Notes: generated by a model not told the origin, from the letters alone. DNA of 64,000 nt from Gammaproteobacteria bacterium (GCA_036000105.1 DASYGE010000007.1:100793-164792); one strand, 5' to 3'. Positions 2,500 to 41,918 are shown, numbered from the stretch's first letter. Made by a program: numbers and translations.

Positions 2500-3792
2500 T
2501 TAGCGATTCCCGCTACCGCTGCTGCGCTGCCGCCCGTTGCCGCGGCCCTGGCTGCGGGAACCCGAACGGTTATGCCAATGGTTGCCGCCGCCCTGGCTGC
2601 GCCGGGGAGCATGTCCATGAGCTTGGCGCGGTTCCGCTTCCGGTGCGGGACCCGAGCCCGGCTCGAAGCCCGGCACGATGGTCTGCGGTATCTCCTGGCG
2701 GAGCAGGCGTTCGATGTCTCGGAGCAGGCTGCGTTCGCTGCCGGCCACGAGGGAGACCGCTTCACCTGAGCTGCCGGCGCGGCCGGTGCGGCCGATGCGG
2801 TGCACGTAATCTTCCGGCACGTTCGGCAGCTCGTAGTTCACCACATGGGGCAACTGGTCGATGTCCAGGCCGCGCGCGGCGATGTCCGTCGCCACCAACA
2901 CACGTACACGGTTGTCTTTGAAATCCGCCAATGCGCGGGTGCGGGCACCCTGGCTCTTGTTGCCATGGATGGCAGCCGACTGGATGCCTTCCTTTGAGAG
3001 CTGTTCGCAGAGGCGGTTGGCGCCGTGCTTGGTGCGGGTGAAGACCAGTACCTGCTTCCAGTCGCCTTCCTTGATGAGCTGTGCCAGCAGCGCGCGTTTG
3101 CGATGCTGATCCACGGGGTACACGCGCTGGCTGACGCGTTCGGCGGTGGAGTTGCGCGGCGCCACGTCGATGGTGGCCGGATCCCGCAAGATGCCGCCCG
3201 CGAGCTTGCGGATGTCATCGGAGAAGGTGGCGGAGAACATCAGGTTCTGCCGGCCCGAGGGCAGGAGCGTGAGGATGCGGCGGATGTCGCGGATGAAGCC
3301 CATGTCCAGCATGCGATCGGCCTCGTCCAGTACCAGGATCTCGACCCTGGAGAGGTCGATGGTGCGCTGTTCCACGTGGTCCAAGAGGCGACCGGGGGTG
3401 GCGATGACGATGTCCACGCCGCGGCGCAGCTTGTCTATCTGCGGGTTGATGTTCACCCCGCCGAAGATGGTCACGCACTGGAAGCGCAGATACTTGCCGT
3501 AGGTCTGCACGCTCTCGCCCACCTGGGCGGCGAGTTCGCGGGTGGGGGTGAGGATCAGTACGCGTACCGGGCGCTTATGCGCCTGGGGGACGGGGGCGGC
3601 CTGCAAGCGCTGCAACAGCGGCAGGGTGAAGCCGGCGGTCTTGCCGGTGCCCGTCTGGGCGGCGGCTTGCAGATCGCGACCGGTGAGGATCACGGGGATG
3701 GCTTGCGTCTGCACGGGGGTGGGCTCGGTATAGCCCTGTTCGGTGACAGCACGCAGCAATTCGGCCGAAAGGCCGAGGGACGAAAATGACAT
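2500..3792 (-). CDS. rhlE: ATP-dependent DEAD-box RNA helicase RhlE
   Basis: Q motif, [29 protein letters not shown]; Gly/Arg-rich tail. Confidence 0.93.
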
Positions 3793-3799
3793 GTTTACT

Positions 3800-3976
3800 C
3801 CTGGATCCGCCTGCTCGCGCTCACACTCAGTGAGCGTCGTGCCGGTCCAGGCAGTGATTTTTTTCTAAGGGGAATCGGGAAGTACGAGGTACGCCGAGAC
3901 AGGTTTGCGGGACTTGAGACCGGGTCGCGTCGCGTCAAACTGGGGCGCATTATAACGAGTCTGGGGGGATTTGCCA
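3800..3976 (-). promoter_or_regulatory. rhlE sigma70-like promoter and structured 5' leader
   Basis: Minus-strand TATAAT at 3954-3949 with weak -35 TGGCAA; CCTGGA/TCCAGG stem (3800-3851) overlaps the AGGAG Shine-Dalgarno; inner CGCTCAC/GTGAGCG hairpin. Confidence 0.45.
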
Positions 3977-4138
3977 GTGAAATCAGCGCCCAAGCCATCC
4001 AAGGCGGTAATAATCCTGCCCAAACCAGGGTCTTTGAGGTATCGGGATGGGCTGTTCAGTGCGCCTCTGGATCGGCTCATTTCGAGTACCCTGATAGGTG
4101 AATCCCGCGGTTTTCAAACCCTTTTGGAGGATAGGTTC

Positions 4139-4414
4139 ATGGATAAAGACATCAAATTCGCCATCGGCGCCGCCATCGCCGCCACCCTGATCACCGCATC
4201 TGCCCTGGCGGCCGACAAGCCCACCGCCCAAGAGAAGTGCTACGGGGTCTCCGCGGCCGGCAAGAACGACTGCCAGACTGCCAGCAATTCCTGCGCCGGC
4301 ACCTCCGAGAAAGATCGTCAGCCGGATGCCTTCGTCAACCTGCCCAAGGGCCTGTGCAGCAAGATCGCCGGCAGCTCCCTGACCGCGGGCGCTCCTGCGA
4401 AGAAGAAGGGCTGA
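4139..4414 (+). CDS. bufA1: BufA1/DUF2282-type bufferin RiPP precursor (Sec signal, 4 Cys)
   Basis: Signal peptide then EKCYGVSAAGKNDC...SCAGTS...LPKGLCSKIAG; GGAGG RBS; precedes DUF692. Confidence 0.88.
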   Translation: MDKDIKFAIGAAIAATLITASALAADKPTAQEKCYGVSAAGKNDCQTASNSCAGTSEKDRQPDAFVNLPKGLCSKIAGSSLTAGAPAKKKG

Positions 4415-4433
4415 GTAACGCATTTCTGTTCCC

Positions 4434-4466
4434 AGCCGGTCCCTGCGCCTGCGGGGACCGGCTTTC
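4434..4466 (+). terminator. Hairpin after bufA1 (weak terminator or mRNA stabiliser)
   Basis: AGCCGGTCCC / GGGACCGGCT inverted repeat followed by a short T run. Confidence 0.55.
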
Positions 4467-4587
4467 GGGATCCATTGGTAATAAACCCGCCTGTATCCTG
4501 GTCTCTGCTGGAGCTTCGCGGCCTCGAAGACTGCCTGGCCACACCCTGCGCAAACAGCCCGCTGCGAACAGCTAGACTTTAGGTCTT

Positions 4588-5451
4588 ATGGATACGACCC
4601 CACACGCGACACAGCTTGCTCCCGCCCGCGCGGGGATAGGTCTTCGTGCACCGCATGTACAGGCGCTCTTGGACAGCCGCCCGCCGATGGCCTGGCTCGA
4701 GGTGCATAGCGAGAACTATTTCGCCGAAGGCGGCCGCGCCGTGACCGAACTCGATCAGGTGCGCCAGGATTATCCCTTGAGCCTGCACGGTGTGGGCCTC
4801 TCCCTGGGTTCGACGGATCCGCTCAACCGCGAGCATCTCGCGAAGCTCAAGGCCGCGGTGGAACGCTTCTCACCCATGCTGGTCTCCGAGCATCTCTGCT
4901 GGGTGTCCGCAGGCAACAGCTATTTCCACGATCTCTTGCCCTTGCCCTATACCGACGAAGCTCTGGAACATGTGGTGGCGCGCATCGCCGAAGTGCAGGA
5001 TCATCTCGGCCGGCAGATTCTCATCGAGAACGTATCCAGCTATCTCGAATTCGAGCACTCGGCCATCCCCGAATGGGAATTCCTGCGGGAGACGGCGGCG
5101 CGCTCTGGCTGTGGCATCCTCCTGGATGTGAACAACATCCATGTGAACGCAGTGAACCATGGCTTCGATGCGCGTCATTACATAGATTCCATCCCAGCCC
5201 GGGAGGTGCAGGAGATCCACCTGGCCGGGCACGCAGAGAAACGGGTGGAGGGAGTGGAACTCCTCATAGACACCCATGACCGGCCGGTGAAGGATGCCGT
5301 CTGGGAGCTATATGCTCACGCGCTGCAGGCCCTCGGTCCCAAGCCCACCCTCATCGAATGGGACAGTGAGCTTCCGGAGCTTCCGGTGCTGCTGGCGGAA
5401 GCCATCAAGGCGGATAGATTGTTGGTGCATAGTCATGCTGCCGCTTCCTGA
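4588..5451 (+). CDS. bufB1: DUF692 multinuclear non-heme iron oxidative enzyme (MNIO), BufB1-like
   Basis: EVHSENY, HGVGLSLG, SEHLCW, ENVSSY, LDVNN, EIHLAGH, DTH, EWD motifs. Confidence 0.92.
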   Translation: MDTTPHATQLAPARAGIGLRAPHVQALLDSRPPMAWLEVHSENYFAEGGRAVTELDQVRQDYPLSLHGVGLSLGSTDPLNREHLAKLKAAVERFSPMLVSEHLCWVSAGNSYFHDLLPLPYTDEALEHVVARIAEVQDHLGRQILIENVSSYLEFEHSAIPEWEFLRETAARSGCGILLDVNNIHVNAVNHGFDARHYIDSIPAREVQEIHLAGHAEKRVEGVELLIDTHDRPVKDAVWELYAHALQALGPKPTLIEWDSELPELPVLLAEAIKADRLLVHSHAAAS

Positions 5452-6196
5452 GCTGGAAAGCCGTTTCGGCCAGGCCTTATCCGGCAACCCTGTAGGTGAG
5501 TTGTCTATATGCAGCAACGGACTCACCGGCGCCCAGCGCTTGCAGGTGTATCGCAATAACATGCAGAGCGCGCTCATGGGCGCCCTCAGGAGTGTCTATC
5601 CCACCACGGAACGGCTAGTGGGAGAGGAGTTCTTCGCCGCCACCGCCCATGCCTATGCGAAAGCCAATCCGTCCCATTCCGGGAACATCCAGGATTACGG
5701 CGGCACATTCCCCCGGTTCATCCACAGCTTTGAGCCGGCCGCAGCCCTGCCTTATCTGGCTGAGGTGGCGGCAGTGGAATGGCTCCGCCTGGAGACCGCG
5801 CAGGCGCCCGGTCACACACCCATGGATCTCGCGGCTCTCGCTGCCGTGCCCCGGGAGTCGCAGCCGGGGCTGCATTTCCGGCGACAGCCGGCGGTGCGCA
5901 TCTTCTCCTCCCGCTTCCCGGTGCTCACCATCTGGGAGTATTGCCAGTCCGTGGCACCGAAGACGCAGCTCGATATAGACTTACCCGGGGAATGCGTGCT
6001 GTTCGCGCGGCCCGCGCTGGATGTCTATATGCGTCGCCTGACAGCGGGGGAATATACGCTCCTGCATCGGCTGGCTCAGGATAAGACCTTCGAAGCGGCT
6101 TGCCTTGAGGCGCTCGAGGTGGAGCCTGGGTTCGACGTGGAGCAGACGTTCGCCGCACTCGTGCGGGAAGAGATACTCACCGGTTTCGATCATTAA
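5435..6196 (+). CDS. DUF2063 MNIO partner protein, BufC/HvfC-like
   Basis: RLQVYRNN...LRSVYP...LVGEEFF...YG..FPRFI...AEVAAVEW; overlaps the DUF692 stop. Confidence 0.85.
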   Translation: MLPLPELESRFGQALSGNPVGELSICSNGLTGAQRLQVYRNNMQSALMGALRSVYPTTERLVGEEFFAATAHAYAKANPSHSGNIQDYGGTFPRFIHSFEPAAALPYLAEVAAVEWLRLETAQAPGHTPMDLAALAAVPRESQPGLHFRRQPAVRIFSSRFPVLTIWEYCQSVAPKTQLDIDLPGECVLFARPALDVYMRRLTAGEYTLLHRLAQDKTFEAACLEALEVEPGFDVEQTFAALVREEILTGFDH

Positions 6197-6217
6197 GACC
6201 TACACGGGGAGAATGCG

Positions 6218-6709
6218 ATGAACATGTTCACCAAGATCCAGGGTCTGTACGGCAAGCTCGTCGGCTGGCTGGACTACGGCAAGCCGGTGGTGGATCTCGG
6301 CCTGCGCCTCTGGGTCGCGGACGCTTTCTTCCGCTCAGGCCTGGTCAAGATCTCCAACATGGATTCCACCATCGATCTCTTCACCAACACCTACCATGTG
6401 CAGTTCCTGCCCCCGGTGTTCGCTGCTTACCTCGGTACCGGGGTGGAACTCGTGGTGCCGGTGCTCCTGGCTTTCGGCATCTTCGGGCGCCTGACCGCCG
6501 GGTTCATGTTCGTCTATAACCTCATCTGCGTCATATCTTTCCCCGACCTGTGGCCGGATGGCTTCTGGACCGGCTTGTTCGGCACCGCTTTCAAGGATCA
6601 CAAGATATGGGGGCTGATGCTGCTGGTCACCTTCATCTATGGCCCCGGTAAGCTCTCAGTGGATTACCTGGTCATGAAGTTCTTTCCGCGCCTGAAACCC
6701 TCGGCCTGA
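6218..6709 (+). CDS. DoxX family membrane protein, BufD-like
   Basis: LGLRLWVADAFFRSGLVKI, GTGVEL, GPGKLSVD motifs; four hydrophobic segments. Confidence 0.85.
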   Translation: MNMFTKIQGLYGKLVGWLDYGKPVVDLGLRLWVADAFFRSGLVKISNMDSTIDLFTNTYHVQFLPPVFAAYLGTGVELVVPVLLAFGIFGRLTAGFMFVYNLICVISFPDLWPDGFWTGLFGTAFKDHKIWGLMLLVTFIYGPGKLSVDYLVMKFFPRLKPSA

Positions 6710-6718
6710 ACCCGGATG

Positions 6719-6757
6719 AAAAAAACGGCAGGGCTCTTGAAGAGCCCTGCCGTCTCT
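6719..6757. terminator. Bidirectional terminator between the two convergent MNIO operons
   Basis: A7-ACGGCAGGGCTCT-TGA-AGAGCCCTGCCGT-CTCT perfect 13-bp stem. Confidence 0.8.
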
Positions 6758-6770
6758 ATGGCCTATCCTG

Positions 6771-7679
6771 TTATTGAGTGTCGGGGGCCGTGATGGCCTT
6801 GCGGATGGCCGCATCCGGCGCGCTGTCGTCGTACACCACTTTGCCGTTCACCAAGGCGACTCCGAGCTTCTTCCAGAGGGCCGGCAGGTTCGGGTCCACC
6901 GGCTTGTCCTTCATCCCGGCGTAGAGATCTTCTAGCACGGTCACACCCACCGCCTTGTCTGCCACAGCCAGGGCCTTGGTGAGCGGCCAGGCGCTGTTGA
7001 TGTTGCCTCCGGCGGCCAGGATGCCCCGCAGGGCGTCCTGCAGGCCGTAGCGGTTGCGGGTCCGCTCGCGTATCTGCACATCCGCCAGCAGGCAGAACAT
7101 GGCACCGCCCCAATAAGTGCGACCCCAGGTGGCGGTGTTATCCAGCCCCTGATCGCCCACATCCGGCAGACCCTTCGGCATGCCTTTGATAGTCTCCTGC
7201 CAGAGATAATCCACGCTGAGATCGCCTATCTCGGCCCTCGCCACGGGTTCCACGTAGGTAGCGATGCCTTCCTCTATCCAGTGTTGGTTCTCCGCCACCC
7301 GCGGGAAAGCGAGATGCACCATCTCGTGGGTCATGACCCAGTCCGCTTGCATCTCGTCGTTGGTCACGGCGCCGCCTATGCCCATGCGGATGAACGCGCC
7401 ATCTTCGCTGCCATAAGTGGTGCCGGAGGCATTGCCGCGCCGGCCGGGACGTGCGTCCACCCGGATCTTCACCATCGGCACCGGATAGCGACCGTAGTAA
7501 TGCGTCACGGCCTTCTGGGCGGTATGTATCCATTGCAAGACCTGAGCATGGCTCACGCTGAGGTCGCCGGGTGAGAAGGCCACCTGCACGGGGTCTGGTG
7601 CGGCAACCGGTGTATCCGCCAAAACAGTGGATGCCATGGTGGGGAGCAGGAAGAGCAAGGCAGCAGAATATGGCTTCAC
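6771..7679 (-). CDS. Secreted gluzincin-like zinc metallopeptidase (M1/M61-like), function unknown
   Basis: Signal peptide; WVMTHEMVHLAFP...WIEEGIATY and YWGGA motifs; GTG start overlaps the upstream TGA (GTGA). Confidence 0.65.
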   Translation of the reverse strand: MKPYSAALLFLLPTMASTVLADTPVAAPDPVQVAFSPGDLSVSHAQVLQWIHTAQKAVTHYYGRYPVPMVKIRVDARPGRRGNASGTTYGSEDGAFIRMGIGGAVTNDEMQADWVMTHEMVHLAFPRVAENQHWIEEGIATYVEPVARAEIGDLSVDYLWQETIKGMPKGLPDVGDQGLDNTATWGRTYWGGAMFCLLADVQIRERTRNRYGLQDALRGILAAGGNINSAWPLTKALAVADKAVGVTVLEDLYAGMKDKPVDPNLPALWKKLGVALVNGKVVYDDSAPDAAIRKAITAPDTQ

Positions 7680-8455
7680 TCTGTATGTACCTCGGTGATG
7701 AGCCCATCTATGAGCCAGCGCTTCAGGAAACTAGCGGCCTGCATGGCCACGTCCGAGGCTTCATGCCACTGGCAGAGGCCTTCGCAGAGTTCGCCGAAGT
7801 TCCGATCGTCAGCCGCGGCACTGAGGGCCCAGGCTTCGTCTTCATTGAGAGAGCGCCAGTGGGTAAGAAGTTCCGCACGCCATAGGAGCCAGGAGGAGGG
7901 TGCCTCGCCCTTCAACAGTTCCGGGGTCTCACCTGCTTCTAGGGTCTGCCACACCTGGGGTACGTTCCAACCGAGAGTGAGCCGTTGCACGGCAGCGTGC
8001 AGGTTGAAGTGGAGCCCGGCCCAGGCTTCCGGCGGTACCGTGGCCAAGGCTTCGAGGCCGGCGATGGGTTCGTCCGCCGCGTCAAACACCAAGCCTTGAG
8101 CCCATTCAAAAGCAGCCATCTCCGCGAGATAGGGATGCTCGACGTAAGGTTCGGTGCGGCGCAGGAAATCTTCCAGGTGGCGGCTGAACCAGCGCACCGA
8201 GGGATGGGTGGAAGGATGGGCATCTATGTAAGCGCGGCCCAGGCGATCGAATTCCTCATCCCCCAGGAGACCGTGCAGGCCCGTGTAGTTGTCCTGCAAC
8301 ACTTCCAGCAGCCGCAGCCGGTAAGCCTCCACATAGATGCGTACCCGTTCGGCCGCGCTTGCCTGGGGGGTGCTCACCACCTGGCCCTGCATGTCCAGGT
8401 CGTTCTTGAGCATGCAGTGCTGGAAGTCCTGTTCCAGTCCGCTGAGCGCGCTCAT
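7676..8455 (-). CDS. Second DUF2063 MNIO partner protein
   Basis: [17 protein letters not shown]...[11 protein letters not shown]...MAAFEWA; ATG overlaps the DUF692 stop (ATGA). Confidence 0.85.
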
Positions 8456-9306
8456 GCGGCTCGCTCTTTCAGTATCGGGTTCGCGATGGCCCGTGCCTGA
8501 TTCAGTTCCGCCAGCACCTCTGCCAGCGGTGGGATGTTGGCGTCCCGTTCGATCATGGTGGACACCGGACCGAAGTGCCGTACTGCCTCGGCGTAGAGGT
8601 CCCATACGTCGCGGATGATGGGCTGATCGTGGGTATCCACGATGATATTGCCGTTGTAGGTGTGGCCGGCCAAGTGGAATTGACGCACCCTCGCCGCCGG
8701 CACGCCCCGCAGGTATTCCCGCGGATCGAACTCGTGGTTATGGCTGCTCACATAGATGTTGTTGATGTCGAGCAGGATGTGGCAGTCTGCCGCCTCGCAG
8801 ATGGCACTCAGGAACTCCCACTCGCTCATGGCCGACTGGGTGTAGGTGACATAGCTGGAGACGTTCTCCAACAGGATCTGCCTGCCCAGATAGTCCTGCA
8901 CCTGCCGCACGCGTGTCGCCACGTGCTGCACCGCTTCCTCGGTATAGGGCAGGGGCATGAGGTCGTGCAGGTTCTTGCCCGCGATGCCGGTCCAGCACAG
9001 GTGATCGGATATCCAGCGGGGTTCCACTCGTGCCGCCAGCGCCTTGAGGCGCTTCAGGTAATTCATGTCCAGCGGATCGCCGCCGCCGATGGAGAGCGAC
9101 ACGCCGTGCATCACCAGCGGATAGAGGGCGCGGAAGCGCTCCAGGTAGTGGAGCGGCTTGCCGCCGTCCACCATGTAGTTCTCCGAGAGGATCTCGAGCC
9201 AGTCCACCGCCGGCTTCTCCGCGAGGATGGCTTCATAGTGTTCGGTGCGCAGGCCGAGGCCGAAACCGAGATAGGGCCGCGCGGTGTCGGATGTCTTGTT
9301 GCTCAC
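8452..9306 (-). CDS. bufB2: Second DUF692 MNIO, BufB2/HvfB-like
   Basis: [51 protein letters not shown] motifs. Confidence 0.92.
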
Positions 9307-9345
9307 GGTCGAATTCTACTCGTGTGTGTATCGCAGCAGACCGCA

Positions 9346-9388
9346 CAAAAGGAAAGACCCGGCCACCTGTTAGGGCGACCGGGTCTTT
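9346..9388 (-). terminator. Intrinsic terminator/attenuator between bufA2 and bufB2
   Basis: AAAGACCCGG / CCGGGTCTTT 10-bp stem followed on the minus strand by TTTCCTTTT. Confidence 0.7.
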
Positions 9389-9413
9389 CTCTCAAGCCAA
9401 TGACGTAAGGCTA

Positions 9414-9674
9414 TTAGGCCTTGCCGCCTTCGAACTTGCCGCCGGCCTTGTCGCAGTCAGCCTTCGTGGTCACCACGAAGCCCTTGCCCTTGCAGGAGTT
9501 CTGGCCTTTGCAGCCATGGTCGAAACTCTTGCAGGAGCTCTGGCCCTTGCAGGAGTTGCCACCCAGACACTTGCCCGTGGCAGCGCTGTCAGCAGCAGTG
9601 GCGAGGGGAGCCAGCACGAACAGGCTGGCGGCGATGGCGGCGATGGCGATACCGGAAACTTTAGTCGTATTCAT
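9414..9674 (-). CDS. bufA2: BufA2-type bufferin RiPP precursor (Sec signal, 6 Cys, CKG repeats)
   Basis: Signal peptide then KCLGGNSCKGQSSCKSFDHGCKGQNSCKGKG...DC; GAGGA RBS; first gene of the DUF692-DUF2063 operon. Confidence 0.85.
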   Translation of the reverse strand: MNTTKVSGIAIAAIAASLFVLAPLATAADSAATGKCLGGNSCKGQSSCKSFDHGCKGQNSCKGKGFVVTTKADCDKAGGKFEGGKA

Positions 9675-10034
9675 GATAGACGTCCTCTAATAGAGTTGGT
9701 TGTTAACACCCGAAACAACATGTTGATACGGATCACTCCACGGTCCGCCAGGGGATCCGGAATCCCCTGGGGGCCCGGTTCACCGTGCGGGGTCACCCGC
9801 ATCTCAGATTGAACCCATATCGTCCAGGTTCATCCTAAGATACGGACTGTCGGGACTCCGGGATGCGGCCTTTGACCCGCAACCTAGTGCATCCACAGGT
9901 ATATGGAAGACCCGGCAGGGCAGTATTTATTACACAATTGTTAGTCTGGCGCCAACATGACATTAACGCCCTGCTATGTTGGCCGCTATTATGTAAGTGG
10001 GGTGGCGGCAAGGAGTTGCCACATGGGTACTTAA

Positions 10035-10053
10035 CCTGAGTAATTAACTCAGG
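10035..10053. promoter_or_regulatory. Perfect inverted repeat, candidate operator
   Basis: CCTGAGT-AATTA-ACTCAGG, 25 bp upstream of the dsbA-like ATG, in the divergent bufA2/dsbA spacer. Confidence 0.4.
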
Positions 10054-10078
10054 ATTTGCCAGCCGGGGAGTCACCACC

Positions 10079-10825
10079 ATGCAAAAGCCAGCCGACGAGG
10101 CCCCTGACCGCTCACGTTATTGGCTGTATGGGGGCATCGCGCTCCTCATCATAGCCATCGTCTATACCGGTATCCTGCTCATCCGCGCCCGGGCCGGCGC
10201 GGCGGATCAGAGCGCCGCGGTGGAAGCCGCCGCCGCCAACGCGCCCCAGGTACAGTTCGTGCCATCCGAGGATGCGGTGGGCGTGAGCATGGGCCAGGCA
10301 GACGCGCCCGTGGTGGTGCGCGAGTTCGCTGATTACCAGTGTCCCGCCTGCGGCACCTTCGAGCCCGCGCTGGAGAAGATGCGCAAGGAATACGTGGACA
10401 CCGGCATGGTGCGGTTCGTGTTCTTCGATTACCCGCTGGATATCCACAAGAACGCCATGTTCGCTTCCCTTGCAGCGCGCTGCGCCGGCTCCCAGGGGCA
10501 TTTCTGGCCCATGCACGATCTGCTCTATGCACGGCAGCAAGACTGGGCCGAGGCGGCGGAGCCCATCGCCAAGTTCCAGTCTTACGCCCAGGAACTCGGT
10601 CTGGATCCCGGCGCGCTGCTCGGTTGCATACGCTCAGGCACTACCCGCCAGGACGTGATGCGCAGCCAGGCCTATGGCGATGCGCTGGGGATCAATGCCA
10701 CGCCGAGTTACGGCGTGAACGGCGCCGGTCGGGCGGGTGCCATGCCCTACGATGAACTCAAGGAGCTCATCGAGCAGCAGTACGCCCTGGCGCACGGCCC
10801 CAAGCCCATCACCCAGAAACCCTGA
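10079..10825 (+). CDS. Membrane-anchored DsbA-family thiol-disulfide oxidoreductase
   Basis: N-terminal TM helix; EFADYQCPAC active site; VRFVFFDYPL; GINATP cis-Pro loop. Confidence 0.85.
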   Translation: MQKPADEAPDRSRYWLYGGIALLIIAIVYTGILLIRARAGAADQSAAVEAAAANAPQVQFVPSEDAVGVSMGQADAPVVVREFADYQCPACGTFEPALEKMRKEYVDTGMVRFVFFDYPLDIHKNAMFASLAARCAGSQGHFWPMHDLLYARQQDWAEAAEPIAKFQSYAQELGLDPGALLGCIRSGTTRQDVMRSQAYGDALGINATPSYGVNGAGRAGAMPYDELKELIEQQYALAHGPKPITQKP

Positions 10826-10833
10826 GGCCGGTC

Positions 10834-11136
10834 ATGGCGGAATACCGTATGCAAGGGAGCGATCTCTACGATCGTAACCGGAACCGCCTGGGATATCTCC
10901 GGGACAGCACCGTGTTCGATGCGGTCAACAGCCGCATGGGTTACGTACGCAACAACGACATCTACGATTCCCTCAACCGGCGTATGGCCTTCGTGCGGGA
11001 CACGGATGTCTATAGCGCCAGCAACAACCGCATGGACAGCCTGGAAAACTTCCGCAAGCGCATCCAGGGCGCGCCGGAGGGACCCATGGCGGTGGCGCTT
11101 TTGATGTTGCTGGTGAGGACCCCGGGCGGGGAATAG
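10834..11136 (+). CDS. Small protein with four 16-aa tandem repeats (beta-flower-like)
   Basis: DLYDRNRNRLGYLRDS / TVFDAVNSRMGYVRNN / DIYDSLNRRMAFVRDT / DVYSASNNRMD, then a hydrophobic C-terminal helix. Confidence 0.6.
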   Translation: MAEYRMQGSDLYDRNRNRLGYLRDSTVFDAVNSRMGYVRNNDIYDSLNRRMAFVRDTDVYSASNNRMDSLENFRKRIQGAPEGPMAVALLMLLVRTPGGE

Positions 11137-11142
11137 TTTCAG

Positions 11143-11571
11143 CTAGCGCGCGCGCGCCTTGATGCAGGCGAGATAGGCCTGTTCGTCAGGAAGGCGATTC
11201 TCCCGTTGCGCACGCCACAGGGCTTCTCCCAGGCATTCCAGCATCGTGTGTTCCGCAGCGTGGGCATCGCCGGTGTGGATCAGCAGTGCACTGTGGGCCG
11301 CCTTGATGCCGGCCGGCCGGTCTATGGAGAGTTGCTCGCGGATGGCGATGTGCATGCCCATATGCAGGAAGGGATTGGTCTCGCCGCCTTCCGGCAGCCA
11401 ATCCTTGTCCAGGGTCTCGCCGCCGTCTTCCAGCAGCGGATGGTATTCCGGATGCAGGCGGATCACCTCGGCGATGATGGTCTCCAGCGCCGTCATGGGC
11501 AGACCGTCCTGCATCTTCTTCCAGGCGTCGAAGAACGGTTGGCGCGTGTCGCTGCGGTTAGTGGAGTACAT
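11143..11571 (-). CDS. DUF1841 family protein
   Basis: R.FFDAWKK...LE...HPEYH...NPFLHMGMHIAIREQLSIDRP...H...ECL. Confidence 0.85.
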   Translation of the reverse strand: MYSTNRSDTRQPFFDAWKKMQDGLPMTALETIIAEVIRLHPEYHPLLEDGGETLDKDWLPEGGETNPFLHMGMHIAIREQLSIDRPAGIKAAHSALLIHTGDAHAAEHTMLECLGEALWRAQRENRLPDEQAYLACIKARAR

Positions 11572-11582
11572 GGAAGAAGATT

Positions 11583-12275
11583 CTAACGCTTGCGCGCTTC
11601 GACGGGTTTCTTCTTCCCCAGGTTCAGGGGCACTTTCGGTTCCGGCTTGGTCTTCTGCCGGTACTCACATAGGTCGGCGATGATGCAGCGAGGGCATTCG
11701 GGCTTGCGGGCTTTACATACATAGCGCCCGTGCAGGATCAGCCAGTGATGGGCGTCCTGCTTGTACTCATCCGGCGTGAACTTCACCAGACGGTCTTCCA
11801 CTTCCCGTTCATCCTTACCCGGCGCGAGTCCCGTGCGGTTACCTACCCGGAAGATATGGGTGTCCACGGCGATGGTGGGTTCGCCGAAGGCGGTGTTCAG
11901 TACCACGTTGGCGGTCTTGCGACCGACTCCCGGCAATGCTTCCAGGGCCACCCGGTCCCGGGGCACTTCACCGCCGTGCTGCTCCAGCAGCATCTGGGCC
12001 GCGGCGATGATGTTCTTGGCCTTGGTGTTATAGAGGCCGATAGTCTTGATATAAGGTTTGAGTCCGGCTTCACCAAGCTTGAGCATGGCAGCGGGGGTAT
12101 TGGCCACGGGATAGAGCTTCAGCGTGGCTGCATTCACGCTCTTGTCCGTGGCCTGGGCTGAGAGGGTCACGGATACCAGGAGTTCGTAAGGCGTCTGGTA
12201 TTCCAGTTCCGTGGTGGGTTTGGGGTTCGCCGCTTTGAGCCGGCGATAGATCTCCGCGCGTTTCCCGGGGTTCAT
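11583..12275 (-). CDS. nth: Endonuclease III
   Basis: LSAQATD, HhH LPGVGRKTANVV, AVDTH, C-terminal CKARKPECPRCIIADLC Fe-S motif. Confidence 0.95.
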   Translation of the reverse strand: MNPGKRAEIYRRLKAANPKPTTELEYQTPYELLVSVTLSAQATDKSVNAATLKLYPVANTPAAMLKLGEAGLKPYIKTIGLYNTKAKNIIAAAQMLLEQHGGEVPRDRVALEALPGVGRKTANVVLNTAFGEPTIAVDTHIFRVGNRTGLAPGKDEREVEDRLVKFTPDEYKQDAHHWLILHGRYVCKARKPECPRCIIADLCEYRQKTKPEPKVPLNLGKKKPVEARKR

Positions 12276-12276
12276 A

Positions 12277-12909
12277 TCAATGTTTCCCCGGTGCAGATTG
12301 CGCACGTTTTGCCCTGACTCGGGCCACCGCTGCCGCGATCTCTGCTTTTCGGTCTGCCACGGCGCTGCGTTGTGCCGCCCGCTCGCGACGCGCTTCCCGT
12401 TCCATGCTTAGCCGTTCGCCATGCTGGTGATAGCGTCCACGTAATGCATCGGCGCGATCGGGTCCACCCTGGGGGAACTGCCAGCCTTCATAGCCTTCGG
12501 TCACACCCTGGACAGGGGTGAGGCGTATGCAATCCACGGGGCAGGGGGGCAGGCAGAGTTCGCAACCCGTGCAGAGGGCCTCCACCACCGTGTGCATGAG
12601 TTTGGGCCCGCCCAAGATGGCATCTACCGGGCAGGCACTGATGCATTTGGTGCAGCCTAAGCAGAGGGGTTCGTCGATGAAGGCCACGGTGCCGCTGATG
12701 AAGACGCCCACTTCCGGATCCAGTTCGCGGACCGTGCGCCGCAGCAAAGCTGAGAGCGCCTGCAGGGTCTCATGTCCGCCCGGCGGGCAGCGGTCTATAG
12801 CGGTCTGATCAGCGGCTATGGCTTCTGCATAAGCACGGCAATCGGGGTAGCCGCAGCGGGTGCATTGGGTCTGCGGAAGCAGGGCGTCGATTTCGTCTAC
12901 CGTGGCCAC
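12277..12909 (-). CDS. rsxB: Standalone RsxB/RnfB-like ferredoxin
   Basis: [14 protein letters not shown]...CPPGG plus two 4Fe-4S motifs; no other rnf genes in the window. Confidence 0.85.
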
Positions 12910-39122: not shown

Positions 39123-41918
39123 TTACAGCGCTGCGAGGCGGGTGGATTGCTCGCGCAGGCCCTGCAGGGTGGTCTCGAACTCCTTCACCCGCTGACGTTC
39201 CTTGTCCACCACCGCGGCCGGTGCGTTCTGCACGAAGTCCGGCTTGTCGAGCTTGGCCCCGGCCCGGGTGATCTCGCCTTCGATGCGGGCGATCTCCTTC
39301 GCGAGCCTCTCTCTCTCTGCGGCCATATCTATCAGTCCGGCCATGGGGATGAGCAGGCGGGCCTGATCCAGCACTGCGGCCGCCGAGGGGGGCGGTTGCT
39401 CGCTGGGGGCGAGGATACGGATGGACTCCAGCCGCGCCAGGAACTTGAGGTAAGGCTCGGTGCCGGTGAGAGGGATCTTGTGTCCGGCGGGCAGCTCGAT
39501 CAGGAGCGGCACGGCCCGGGAGGGGGCGACCCCCATCTGGCTGCGGATGCTGCGGATCTGCAGCACCGCCTGGCACAGCCATTCCACCTCAGCGTTGCGG
39601 CTGCGATCCGGCTGGATCAGGTCCTTGGACTGGGGGTAGGTCTGACGGGACACACTCTCGCCCTTCACCCCCAGTTTAGGTGCCACCTGCTGCCACAGCT
39701 CTTCGGTGATGAAGGGGATGATGGGGTGCAGGGCCCGGAGCAGGGCCGCCAGGGTATAGAGGAGGGTGTGGCGAGTAGAATCGGCTGCCGTCTGATCTTC
39801 GCCGTTCAGCGCCGGCTTCGAGAGTTCCACGAACCAATCGCAGAAATCGTTCCAGGTGAACTCGTAGAGGGCTTGGGCCGCGAGATCGAAGCGGTAATCC
39901 CGGTAGTGCCGGTCCAGTTCGTCACTGAGGTCGTAGAGCTTGGAGACTATCCAGTGCTCCACTGGTGTCTTGAGCGGCGGGCGCACCGTCGTGGGTTTGA
40001 AGTCCTCGCAGTTCATCAATACGAAGCGCGTGGCGTTCCACAGCTTGTTGCAGAAGTTGCGGTAACCCTCGCAGCGTTTCAGGTCGAAGTTGATGGTGCG
40101 ACTGTGGGTGGCGAGCGCTGCGAAGGTGAAGCGCAGGGCATCGGCGCCCACCGCCGGGATGCCTTCCGGGTAATCCCGGCGCACCCGTTTCTCCACCTTC
40201 TCCTTGTCTTTCGGCAGCAGCAGGGAAGCCACCGATTTCTGCACCAGAGGTTCCAGCTCGATGCCGTCGATGAGGTCCAGGGGATCGATGGTGTTGCCCT
40301 TGGACTTGGACATCTTCTGGCCTTCCGCGTCCCGCACGATGGCGTTGATGTACACCTCTTTGAAGGGTACCCGCTTGGTGAAGTACTGGGTCGCCATGAC
40401 CATGCGCGCCACCCAGAAGAAGATGATGTCGAAACCCGTGATCAACACCGAGGAGGGCAGGAAGGCGTTGAAGTCCTGCCACTCTTTTGCACGCTCTGGC
40501 GTATCGCCGGGCCAGCCCAGGGTGGAGAAGGGCCAGAGAGCCGAGCTGAACCAGGTGTCCAGCACGTCCTCGTCCTGGCGCAGCTTGCCCACGGGCGGGG
40601 TCTTGGCGTGCTTCAAGGCATCCGCCTCGTCCTCACCTACGAAGATGTTGCCCGCCTCGTCGAACCAGGCGGGTATCTGGTGGCCCCACCAGAGCTGGCG
40701 GCTCACGCACCAGTCCTGGATGTTCTCCAGCCACTGTATATAGGTGGTGTTCCAGTTCTCCGGCACGAACTTGATCTTGCCGGAACGGACTGCATCCAGT
40801 GCGGGCTCCGTGATGGCCTTGCGGCCCTTGTCGCTGGTGAGATCCAGGAACCACTGGTCCGTGAGCATGGGTTCGATGACCGCGTTCGAACGCTGGCTGA
40901 TGGGCACCATGAGCTTGTGCTTCTTGGTCTCCACGAGGAGACCGGCAGCCTCCAGGTCCGCGATCACTTTCTTGCGGGCGGCGAAACGGTCCAGGCCGCG
41001 GTAAGCGGCCGGCGCGTTCTCGTTCACCTTGGCGTCCAGGGTGAAGATGTTGATGACGGGTAGGTTGTGGCGCTTACTCAGCACCTGATCGTTGAAATCA
41101 TGGGCCGGGGTGATCTTCACCGCACCGGTGCCGAATTCCTTGTCCACGTACTCGTCGGCGATGACCGGGATCTCCCGGTCCGAGAGAGGTAATTTCAGTT
41201 TCTTGCCGACGATCTTCCGGTAGCGCTCATCCTCTGGATGCACCACCACCGCCACGTCGCCCAGCATGGTCTCGGGCCGGGTGGTGGCTACCGTGAGGCC
41301 TTCACCGCCATCGGCGGCGGGATAGCGGATCAGCCAGAGGCTGCCGTCCCGCTCTTCGTTATCCACCTCGAGATCGGAGACCGCCGTCTGCAGCACCGGG
41401 TCCCAATGCACCAGGCGCTTGCCGCGGTAGAGCAGGCCGTCGCGGTACCACTGCACGAACACACGCTTGACCGCCGCCGACAGGCCCGGGTCCATGGTGA
41501 AGCGTTCCCGCGACCAGTCCACAGAAGCGCCCAGGCGGCGCATCTGGCGGGTGATGGTGGAACCGGATTCCTCCTTCCATTCCCACACCCGTTCCACGAA
41601 CTTCTGCCGGCCGAGGTCGTGACGCGTCTTGCCGGCAGCCGCCAGCTGGTTCTCCACGATCTTCTGGGTGGCGATCCCGGCGTGGTCCGTGCCGCCTTGC
41701 CACAGCACGCGCTCGCCGCGCATGCGGTGGTAGCGGCTCAAGGTATCCATCAGGGTCTGCTGGAAGGCATGCCCCATGTGCAGGGTGCCGGTGACGTTGG
41801 GAGGCGGCAGCAGGATGCAGTAGGGCGTGCCCGTGCCTTCGGGCTTGAACCAGCCGCGGCTTTCCCAAGTCTCGTACCAGCGGTTCTCTATGCCGCGGGG
41901 TTCGTAGGCTTTCTCCAT
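39123..41918 (-). CDS. valS: Valyl-tRNA synthetase
   Basis: PPPNVTGTLHMGH, KMSKS, C-terminal coiled coil. Confidence 0.97.
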   Translation of the reverse strand: MEKAYEPRGIENRWYETWESRGWFKPEGTGTPYCILLPPPNVTGTLHMGHAFQQTLMDTLSRYHRMRGERVLWQGGTDHAGIATQKIVENQLAAAGKTRHDLGRQKFVERVWEWKEESGSTITRQMRRLGASVDWSRERFTMDPGLSAAVKRVFVQWYRDGLLYRGKRLVHWDPVLQTAVSDLEVDNEERDGSLWLIRYPAADGGEGLTVATTRPETMLGDVAVVVHPEDERYRKIVGKKLKLPLSDREIPVIADEYVDKEFGTGAVKITPAHDFNDQVLSKRHNLPVINIFTLDAKVNENAPAAYRGLDRFAARKKVIADLEAAGLLVETKKHKLMVPISQRSNAVIEPMLTDQWFLDLTSDKGRKAITEPALDAVRSGKIKFVPENWNTTYIQWLENIQDWCVSRQLWWGHQIPAWFDEAGNIFVGEDEADALKHAKTPPVGKLRQDEDVLDTWFSSALWPFSTLGWPGDTPERAKEWQDFNAFLPSSVLITGFDIIFFWVARMVMATQYFTKRVPFKEVYINAIVRDAEGQKMSKSKGNTIDPLDLIDGIELEPLVQKSVASLLLPKDKEKVEKRVRRDYPEGIPAVGADALRFTFAALATHSRTINFDLKRCEGYRNFCNKLWNATRFVLMNCEDFKPTTVRPPLKTPVEHWIVSKLYDLSDELDRHYRDYRFDLAAQALYEFTWNDFCDWFVELSKPALNGEDQTAADSTRHTLLYTLAALLRALHPIIPFITEELWQQVAPKLGVKGESVSRQTYPQSKDLIQPDRSRNAEVEWLCQAVLQIRSIRSQMGVAPSRAVPLLIELPAGHKIPLTGTEPYLKFLARLESIRILAPSEQPPPSAAAVLDQARLLIPMAGLIDMAAERERLAKEIARIEGEITRAGAKLDKPDFVQNAPAAVVDKERQRVKEFETTLQGLREQSTRLAAL

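Follow-up and report, generated by a model that had tools for sequence, protein, structure and literature searches.

Two putative bufferin operons, Buf1 and an HExxH-extended Buf2, lie as convergent neighbours in a lineage of soil Gammaproteobacteria

The DNA analysed here is a 64,000-nt stretch from Gammaproteobacteria bacterium (GCA_036000105.1 DASYGE010000007.1:100793-164792), referred to below as the window, and our subject is its 5.5-kb region from 4139 to 9674, which carries two bufferin-type gene clusters, Buf1 and Buf2. Bufferins, described only recently and very widespread, are peptides that buffer copper. Each cluster combines a precursor gene with genes for an MNIO enzyme and a DUF2063 partner, and the eight genes are the following (scores are given against the model cut-off where one applies).

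4139..4414, plus strand: bufA1, Buf1 precursor of 91 aa (Pfam DUF2282/BufA1, PF10048, 6e-22, 77.8 bits against 22.4)
4588..5451, plus strand: bufB1, Buf1-type MNIO (NCBIfam MNIO_BufB, 400.4 bits against 310; Pfam PF05114, 1.6e-110)
5435..6196, plus strand: bufC1, DUF2063 partner (Pfam DUF2063, 6.4e-22, 78.1 bits against 27.2)
6218..6709, plus strand: bufD1/doxX, DoxX membrane protein (Pfam DoxX, 1.5e-14, 54.8 bits against 23.6)
6771..7679, minus strand: predicted secreted HExxH protein of 302 aa, fourth gene of the Buf2 operon, overlapping bufC2 by 4 nt
7676..8455, minus strand: bufC2, DUF2063 partner (Pfam DUF2063, 1.3e-18, 67.5 bits)
8452..9306, minus strand: bufB2, Buf2-type MNIO (MNIO_BufB, 391.6 bits against 310)
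9414..9674, minus strand: bufA2, Buf2 precursor of 86 aa with a Sec signal peptide (NCBIfam Cu_RiPP_BufA2 equivalog, 80.6 bits against 60)

An open reading frame (ORF) map recovered all eight genes where a preliminary description of the region had placed them, and their identities were scored against Pfam and NCBIfam models with curated cut-offs. The operons converge tail to tail, 61 nt apart, with the order precursor-MNIO-DUF2063-DoxX on the plus strand and precursor-MNIO-DUF2063-HExxH on the minus strand; both clusters are complete, as that description had it, and family models match every gene except the HExxH gene. The Buf2 operon is without DoxX, the gene after bufC2 being the HExxH gene, and 4-nt overlaps join bufB2 to bufC2 and bufC2 to the HExxH gene. 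The two precursors do belong to different families: BufA1 (DUF2282/BufA1) has four Cys (Cys34/45/51/72) and a Sec signal peptide ending in ...ASALA, both read directly from the sequence, and BufA2 (Cu_RiPP_BufA2) has six (Cys36/42/48/55/61/74), all invariant among 24 homologues, with a Lys directly after each of the four central ones. On these assignments both clusters are ordinary members of two described families.

We put at roughly 0.78 the probability that the region holds two separate canonical bufferin operons, Buf1 and a Buf2 extended by the HExxH gene, which are neighbours within one lineage and are co-regulated under stress. This reading is built on gene identities, enzyme class signatures, the presence of a promoter motif and comparative linkage, all of which were established directly.

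The two enzyme sets differ in a way that is typical of their classes. BufB1 and BufB2 are 47% identical and BufC1 and BufC2 only 26%. When 69 Buf2-type and 9 Buf1-type MNIOs from the fetched loci were aligned, the Buf2-type enzymes had S-D-H in all cases, Q-x-H in nearly all and E-R-D followed by Asp or Ala in most, and the Buf1-type enzymes had S-E-H and E-I-H in all and E-W-D-S in nearly all. The window enzymes fit this division, BufB1 with SEH/EIH/EWDS and BufB2 with SDH/QFH/ERDA. The motif differences pointed out earlier (SEH/EIH/EWD against SDH/QFH/ERD) are thus real and class-specific over this alignment, and they are class signatures of typical enzyme sets rather than hybrids. Around the expected iron-binding residues, the columns that were inspected show conservation in both classes across the 78 enzymes; we take these positions to be H/H/E/D/N/H/D/H/E, after the ligands of MbnB. 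In Cys-Lys MNIOs, substrate choice has been reported to depend on the residue that follows the catalytic Asp (PMC13097082); the Asp/Ala variation at this place in BufB2 showed no correlation with the presence of the HExxH gene.

Both MNIOs fall below the equivalog cut-off for HvfB (258 and 291 bits against 360) and far below that for MbnB (TIGR04159, 62 and 79 bits against 325), as well as below those for ApyH and ChrH, which identifies them as bufferin enzymes; BufC1 is likewise below the HvfC equivalog cut-off (51.7 against 142). Membership in the oxazolin/HvfABC family was rejected on the low HvfB score and on the EGKCG repeat, found in neither precursor, and membership in the methanobactin MbnABC family on the MbnB-type score. 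The EGKCG captophorins, namely oxazolin/HvfA, fontiphorin and gonophorin (PMC13097082, PMC11252979), would resemble the window systems in their MNIO and DUF2063 enzymes, in carrying Cys-derived 5-thiooxazoles and in their link to copper, but the window precursors are without EGKCG repeats and their MNIOs score under the HvfB and over the BufB cut-off.

The closest known systems are buf1ABCD and buf2ABC of Caulobacter vibrioides (PMC11626156), which share with the window the DUF2282 4-Cys and BUF_6/12Cys 6-Cys precursors with Sec signal peptides, the pairs of MNIO and DUF2063 proteins, DoxX in Buf1 only and, probably, one extracytoplasmic function (ECF) sigma factor over both operons. The two bufferins of Caulobacter are redundant for copper (PMC11626156). 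In contrast to the separate loci of Caulobacter, the window operons are convergent neighbours 61 nt apart, and the window differs further in the fourth Buf2 gene, coding for a putative secreted HExxH gluzincin, in a bufA2 leader of ~230 nt, in lacking sigF/nrsF next to Buf1 and in the −10 half of its promoter motif. That one genome can hold Buf1 and Buf2 is already known from Caulobacter and from Legionella, the latter with up to eight precursor genes (PMC11626156, PMC12452194). The multi-cluster genomes of Legionella pneumophila subsp. fraseri (PMC12452194) resemble the present case in having Buf1 and Buf2 together and some tandem precursors, comparable to the two bufA1 genes of the relatives L001 and L002 discussed below; that study counts genes per genome, and its searchable text and supplements describe neither adjacent Buf1/Buf2 operons nor a peptidase gene. 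More generally, adjacent Buf1 and Buf2 operons were not described anywhere in the searchable literature texts and supplements.

The preliminary description had proposed a fused two-metallophore island, and the comparative data do not bear this out. We fetched the contexts of HExxH homologues and added a species-level GTDB scan with a BufA2 alignment (80 loci, annotated by phmmer; loci are numbered with an L), among which 61 Buf2 loci carry bufB2C2 and 46 have both flanks complete. The window lineage comprises uncultured soil Gammaproteobacteria with an HExxH identity of at least 65%, and its synteny runs on the Buf2 side through metG, a ferredoxin-like gene, nth, DUF1841, a beta-flower protein gene, a DsbA-like gene and bufA2-B2-C2-HExxH, and on the Buf1 side, after a variable junction, through doxX-C1-B1-A1, a DEAD-box helicase gene and carbonic anhydrase. 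The HExxH-doxX junction contains no unrelated gene in the window and in L001/L002, two in L087, three in L088 and six in L003/L004; the direct abutment is one state of this junction. Outside the lineage, adjacency of the two types is rare, with another MNIO operon lying no more than 10 kb from bufA2 in just two of the 46 fully flanked loci, L050 (Thiodiazotropha, with both on one strand and a gap of 3.7 kb) and L030 (where an orphan bufA2 converges with a Buf1 operon). A mobile island was rejected on the flat GC (guanine-plus-cytosine) content, the conserved housekeeping flanks and the borders free of integrase and tRNA genes, and the 5.5-kb region had zero matches in the plasmid collection. 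The neighbourhood is thus a piece of chromosomal synteny, conserved except for a variable gap, and is neither a fused nor a mobile island.

On the reading in the preliminary description, the operons would form one integrated unit with a common DoxX, DsbA and peptidase, in which the precursors are cross-modified or the two peptides serve different metals. The operons abut directly and have one hairpin in common in the window and in L001/L002, a promoter motif is common to both, they are neighbours in every close relative seen, and in L030 the bufA2 gene is without its own bufB2C2 and lies tail to tail with a Buf1 operon, so some BufA2 peptides may depend on a non-adjacent enzyme. Against this, two to six unrelated genes separate the operons in relatives, and the low frequency of Buf1 operons within 10 kb of fully flanked Buf2 loci (2/46) speaks in the same direction. 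Nor is the sharing of parts supported. No DoxX was detectable after bufC2 in any of the 61 Buf2 loci with bufB2C2, Caulobacter buf2 is bufA2BC without DoxX, and neither Buf1 modification nor copper protection requires DoxX there (PMC11626156); since Buf2 operons are as a rule without DoxX and even Buf1 can do without it in Caulobacter, Buf2 has no need of one from its neighbour. By its overlap the HExxH gene is tied to bufC2, and its homologues adjoin bufC2 in taxa without a nearby Buf1, so this gene belongs to Buf2 alone. The cross-modification once suggested finds no support either, because the class signature on each MNIO and the 26% identity of the DUF2063 partners favour cognate enzyme-substrate pairs. 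All considered, integration of the two operons is very unlikely, and two separate operons with conserved neighbours remain our preferred account.

The L030 locus deserves a note of its own. Its orphan bufA2 and Buf1 operon (doxX-bufC1-bufB1-bufA1) occupy 9911-12846 with no bufB2C2 within 10 kb, and the MNIO there carries a mixed ERD motif. The locus is a natural candidate for a test of cross-modification.

The evidence for common regulation came from aligning the upstream regions of bufA2 and bufA1 from relatives, which exposed an element common to both. Its consensus, GTAAYAA-N12-16-GGTCT, matches three times in the 64-kb window against 0.00 expected, at these positions.

4007..4033, plus strand: ECF-type promoter motif before bufA1 (GTAATAA-N-GGGTCT), 106 nt upstream of bufA1
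4478..4504, plus strand: second ECF-type motif copy, 84 nt upstream of bufB1
9908..9933, minus strand: ECF-type promoter motif before bufA2, 234 nt upstream of bufA2

The motif consists of two conserved blocks with a spacer of 16-17 nt (in the form GTAAYA-N16-17-GTCT), and among relatives it precedes each bufA1 copy and bufA2. The copy upstream of bufA1 is also present in L001, L002, L087 and L088, and the copy upstream of bufA2 includes an invariant block, TGTAATAAATA, kept in 8 relatives; bufA2 is preceded by the motif in the Steroidobacteraceae loci L023, L061, L075 and L078 as well. Its −35 half resembles the GTAACC of the Caulobacter sigma-F promoter, GTAACC-N16-CGAA, which was mapped by 5' rapid amplification of cDNA ends upstream of two sigma-F-dependent genes (PMC3511200), and both Caulobacter buf operons are members of the sigma-F regulon (PMC11626156). 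The Caulobacter motif itself was rejected for the window, where a relaxed GTAAC-N16-18-CGAA matches once, at 40062, which is remote from the buf genes and no more than chance predicts, and no sigF/nrsF genes lie next to Buf1 as they do in Caulobacter. Three motif copies, before bufA1, bufB1 and bufA2, suggest one regulon, and we infer that both operons are co-regulated by one ECF sigma factor encoded elsewhere.

Instead of a promoter, the element could be an operator, bound by an activator or a repressor, or it could be left over from a duplication. Part of the motif repetition does go back to common descent, since the 4478-4504 copy came into being along with a duplicated bufA1; in addition, a sigma factor gene was not found nearby by the phmmer test with an RpoE sequence described further on. 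However, the bufA2 copy shows no paralogy to those of bufA1, and its flanks are unrelated; the motif also recurs before bufA2 in the four Steroidobacteraceae loci. The two-block layout with its variable 16-17 nt spacer and a −35 half like the sigma-F GTAACC (PMC3511200) are features of a promoter, and the sigma-70-like sites offer no replacement, since the region has two of them, no more than shuffled sequences, and neither stands before a buf gene on its own strand. A role other than that of a promoter is accordingly unlikely, and an ECF-type promoter motif common to Buf1 and Buf2 in Gammaproteobacteria offers an experimental handle.

The second copy has its own history. Both L001 and L002 possess a second bufA1 (97 aa, 4 Cys), preceded by a promoter motif copy of its own (L001 13103-13490), and it is this gene that the counterpart of 4478-4504 drives there. 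The window, compared with both loci over 4478-4587, is without the second bufA1 and has kept the promoter copy, which now faces bufB1; the second bufA1 has been lost and its promoter left behind. Relatives of this kind form a natural series that varies in bufA1 copy number and in junction content, and they provide a further handle on the system.

Three hairpins accompany the operons.

4430..4470, plus strand: hairpin after bufA1, attenuator or terminator (−34.1 kcal/mol, z-score −4.8; conserved in L001 and L002)
6725..6753, no strand assigned: convergent hairpin between the operons (14-bp perfect inverted repeat)
9352..9389, minus strand: hairpin after bufA2, attenuator or terminator (16-pair stem, −35.3 kcal/mol, z-score −5.9)

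In the hairpin trailing bufA2, the stem is followed by a U-rich tail, CTTTTGTG. A stable hairpin behind the precursor gene is the usual arrangement for keeping precursor mRNA above enzyme mRNA. The hairpin between the operons had been called a bidirectional terminator, and the description holds only in part: one hairpin is indeed common to both operons, but on the minus strand it has a U7 tail (−31.6 kcal/mol) and on the plus strand it is followed by CUCUAUGG, without a U7 tail (−27.3 kcal/mol). With the U7 tract on the minus strand only, it is a canonical intrinsic terminator in one direction only. Rfam gave no gathering-level match in the region, the one weak chance match being Xoo2 (E 0.25) over the convergent hairpin.

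The fourth gene of the Buf2 operon is the part of the locus that gives a fresh lead. Its product has a signal peptide and a single domain of about 280 aa, in which H118, E119, H122, E136 and E137 are invariant among 50 homologues, E136 and E137 being the candidates for the zinc-binding Glu. It has zero Pfam or NCBIfam matches at threshold and zero meaningful PDB sequence matches, and sub-threshold matches to M61 or M1 appeared in just two of the 50 homologues (E 0.012-0.07). The AlphaFold2 model has a mean predicted local distance difference test score (pLDDT) of 92, and its best 32 PDB matches in Foldseek are all catalytic domains of M61, M1 or LTA4H proteins (E 2.7e-6 to 5e-3, query template modelling score 0.46-0.58, identity 12-17%). 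The fold matches, the HExxH motif and the conserved downstream Glu are the grounds for the label gluzincin-like, and the protein is modelled as a minimal secreted gluzincin-like protein with an M1/M61-like fold. It resembles the M1/M61 gluzincin aminopeptidases (PDB 6a8z, 7xyo, 8j9c, PepN, ERAP1) in HExxH, downstream Glu and catalytic-domain fold, and differs from them in being a single domain with a signal peptide, in its 12-17% identity and in having no recognisable GxMEN, with GTTYG standing about 30 residues before HExxH where this exopeptidase motif is expected, a comparison made on sequence. The name "peptidase" first given to it thus rests on the HExxH motif, the conserved Glu and the similarity of the predicted fold, and not on any Pfam, NCBIfam or PDB sequence-model match.

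The linkage of this gene to Buf2 recurs. A homologue lies within 1.5 kb of the bufC2 end in 12 of the 61 Buf2 loci, and on a rough tree these 12 form three clades, the window lineage, an alphaproteobacterial one including Bradyrhizobium, and one in Steroidobacteraceae. The 4-nt start/stop overlap between bufC2 and the HExxH gene is kept in relatives. In a census of the genes after bufC2, no family but HExxH occurred in several taxonomic groups and the other recurrent fourth genes were lineage-specific; a universal fourth gene of Buf2 operons was looked for in this census and rejected. Published work describes extra conserved genes in bufferin clusters as very rare, or reports no protease encoded nearby (PMC12452194, PMC12538549), no protease is described in the published bufferin and captophorin studies (PMC12452194, PMC13097082, PMC12538549), and PMC13097082 raised the question whether such peptides are protease-processed at all. 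A Buf2 operon with a coupled gluzincin gene was not found described in the literature searched, and the recurrent linkage may be regarded as a modest new lead.

It is possible, if doubtful, that this M1/M61-like protein is a dedicated Buf2 accessory enzyme that trims the exported bufferin or recycles the copper-loaded peptide. If so, it would be the first protease tied to the bufferin/captophorin pathway and would define a Buf2 subtype in Gamma- and Alphaproteobacteria, alongside the creatininase-family gene of some Alphaproteobacteria; a peptidase acting on Buf2 would also change the view that signal peptidase alone suffices for these peptides. Only tentatively can one hold the alternative, that it acts as a periplasmic peptidase of general function, or is a zinc protein without proteolytic activity, and that it sits beside bufC2 by an accident of synteny and has no bufferin role. 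With 3343 representatives at 50% identity, which fall into two size classes, the family is large; it is without a Pfam model and annotated as hypothetical in those sources that name its members. Homologues without nearby buf genes are found in L005, L089 and L090, and the published studies cited above describe no protease. An accident is harder to square with the kept 4-nt overlap, with bufC2-adjacent homologues in three separate clades of Gamma- and Alphaproteobacteria, and with the family being the sole one to span more than one taxonomic group in the census. Either way, a recurrent and uncharacterised gene for a secreted zinc-peptidase-like protein in Buf2 operons is another handle for experiment.

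Some alphaproteobacterial Buf2 loci (L042, about 11980-12760; L066 and L082) have a creatininase-family gene between bufC2 and the HExxH gene (PF02633, 157 bits), and L042, L066 and L082 also carry two tandem bufA2 genes.

Put together, the locus would work as follows. A stress-activated ECF sigma factor, encoded outside the window, would fire the promoters before bufA1, bufB1 and bufA2, and the strong hairpin behind each precursor gene would let precursor mRNA exceed enzyme mRNA. Each MNIO/DUF2063 pair would then convert the central Cys of its own precursor to 5-thiooxazoles in the cytoplasm, two in BufA1 and four in BufA2, and the peptides would leave through the Sec pathway. A disulfide between the first and the last Cys, possibly made by the neighbouring DsbA-like protein, would complete small folded peptides that buffer copper in the periplasm, and the HExxH protein, likewise exported, would most likely trim or turn over Buf2. 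The chemistry, the metal, the regulator and the substrate of the peptidase are deduced parts of this scheme.

Several points weigh against it and against the reading of two co-regulated operons. The modifications, the copper binding and the regulation are all extrapolated from homology with Caulobacter buf1/buf2. The −10 half of the promoter motif, GGTCT, differs from the CGAA of Caulobacter, and no ECF sigma gene was found among the ORFs of the 64-kb window, the sole test being phmmer with an E. coli RpoE sequence. The 80-locus Buf2 sample is biased to BufA2 proteins that resemble the one in the window. Finally, the HExxH homologues of L005, L089 and L090, at 53-59% identity, have no buf genes nearby (two of these contigs are from Rhodanobacteraceae), so that the family is not bufferin-specific. 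On the core chemistry of bufferins the locus has nothing new to offer; it bears on their regulation outside Caulobacter, on protease processing and on the roles of accessory genes.

Upstream of bufA2 lie an unusual leader and, on the other strand, a thioredoxin-like gene.

9675..9900, minus strand: long 5' leader of bufA2, conserved (223-235 nt in 8 measured relatives and the window)
10079..10825, plus strand: membrane-anchored DsbA-like thioredoxin (CPAC) (Pfam Thioredoxin_4 1.9e-33, DSBA 2.3e-12)

In a 10-sequence alignment of the leader, 89% of cells are paired, compared with 35-57% for slid controls, and compensatory changes occur at 9 pairs in three helices. The leader had no Rfam match, and a covariance model of it, R1, had no matches beyond the nine training loci in the 88 sources searched (L002 excluded), so the leader is lineage-specific and a widespread RNA element was rejected. 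A 43-codon ORF in the leader (9671-9802), whose stop overlaps the bufA2 start, was also discarded, as relatives preserve neither its frame nor its peptide.

The DsbA-like protein carries a membrane anchor at its N-terminus, and it is plausible that it forms the CysI-CysVI disulfide. Its gene is divergent from bufA2 in every lineage member and in none of the other Buf2 loci; because this neighbour is kept only in the lineage, along with metG, nth and the DEAD-box helicase gene, a link between DsbA and bufferin is inseparable from the synteny, and a DsbA shared by the two operons, as had been suggested, is not supported. A perfect inverted repeat at 10035-10053, CCTGAGTAATTAACTCAGG, stands 26 nt upstream of the start of this gene, is partly conserved in relatives and may be an operator or a leader hairpin. 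Behind the DsbA-like gene, after a gap of 8 nt, is a gene for a 100-aa beta-flower protein (10834-11136, plus strand; Pfam Bflower_2 36 bits, just under the cut-off of 38, and Bflower 25.3 bits, above the cut-off of 25), and the pair is kept beside bufA2 throughout the lineage.

Two further observations concern the relatives and the far flank. The contig L009 (JBLNDO010000078.1) shares the gammaproteobacterial synteny, and its BufA2 is 77% identical, but its label is that of a "Bacillota bacterium" metagenome-assembled genome and it is probably misbinned. On the Buf1 side, within 3793-3977, an untranslated leader of about 150 nt precedes the DEAD-box helicase gene (2500-3792, minus strand) and is strongly conserved, and a good sigma-70-like promoter, CTGGCA-17-TATAAT, lies at 3949-3977.

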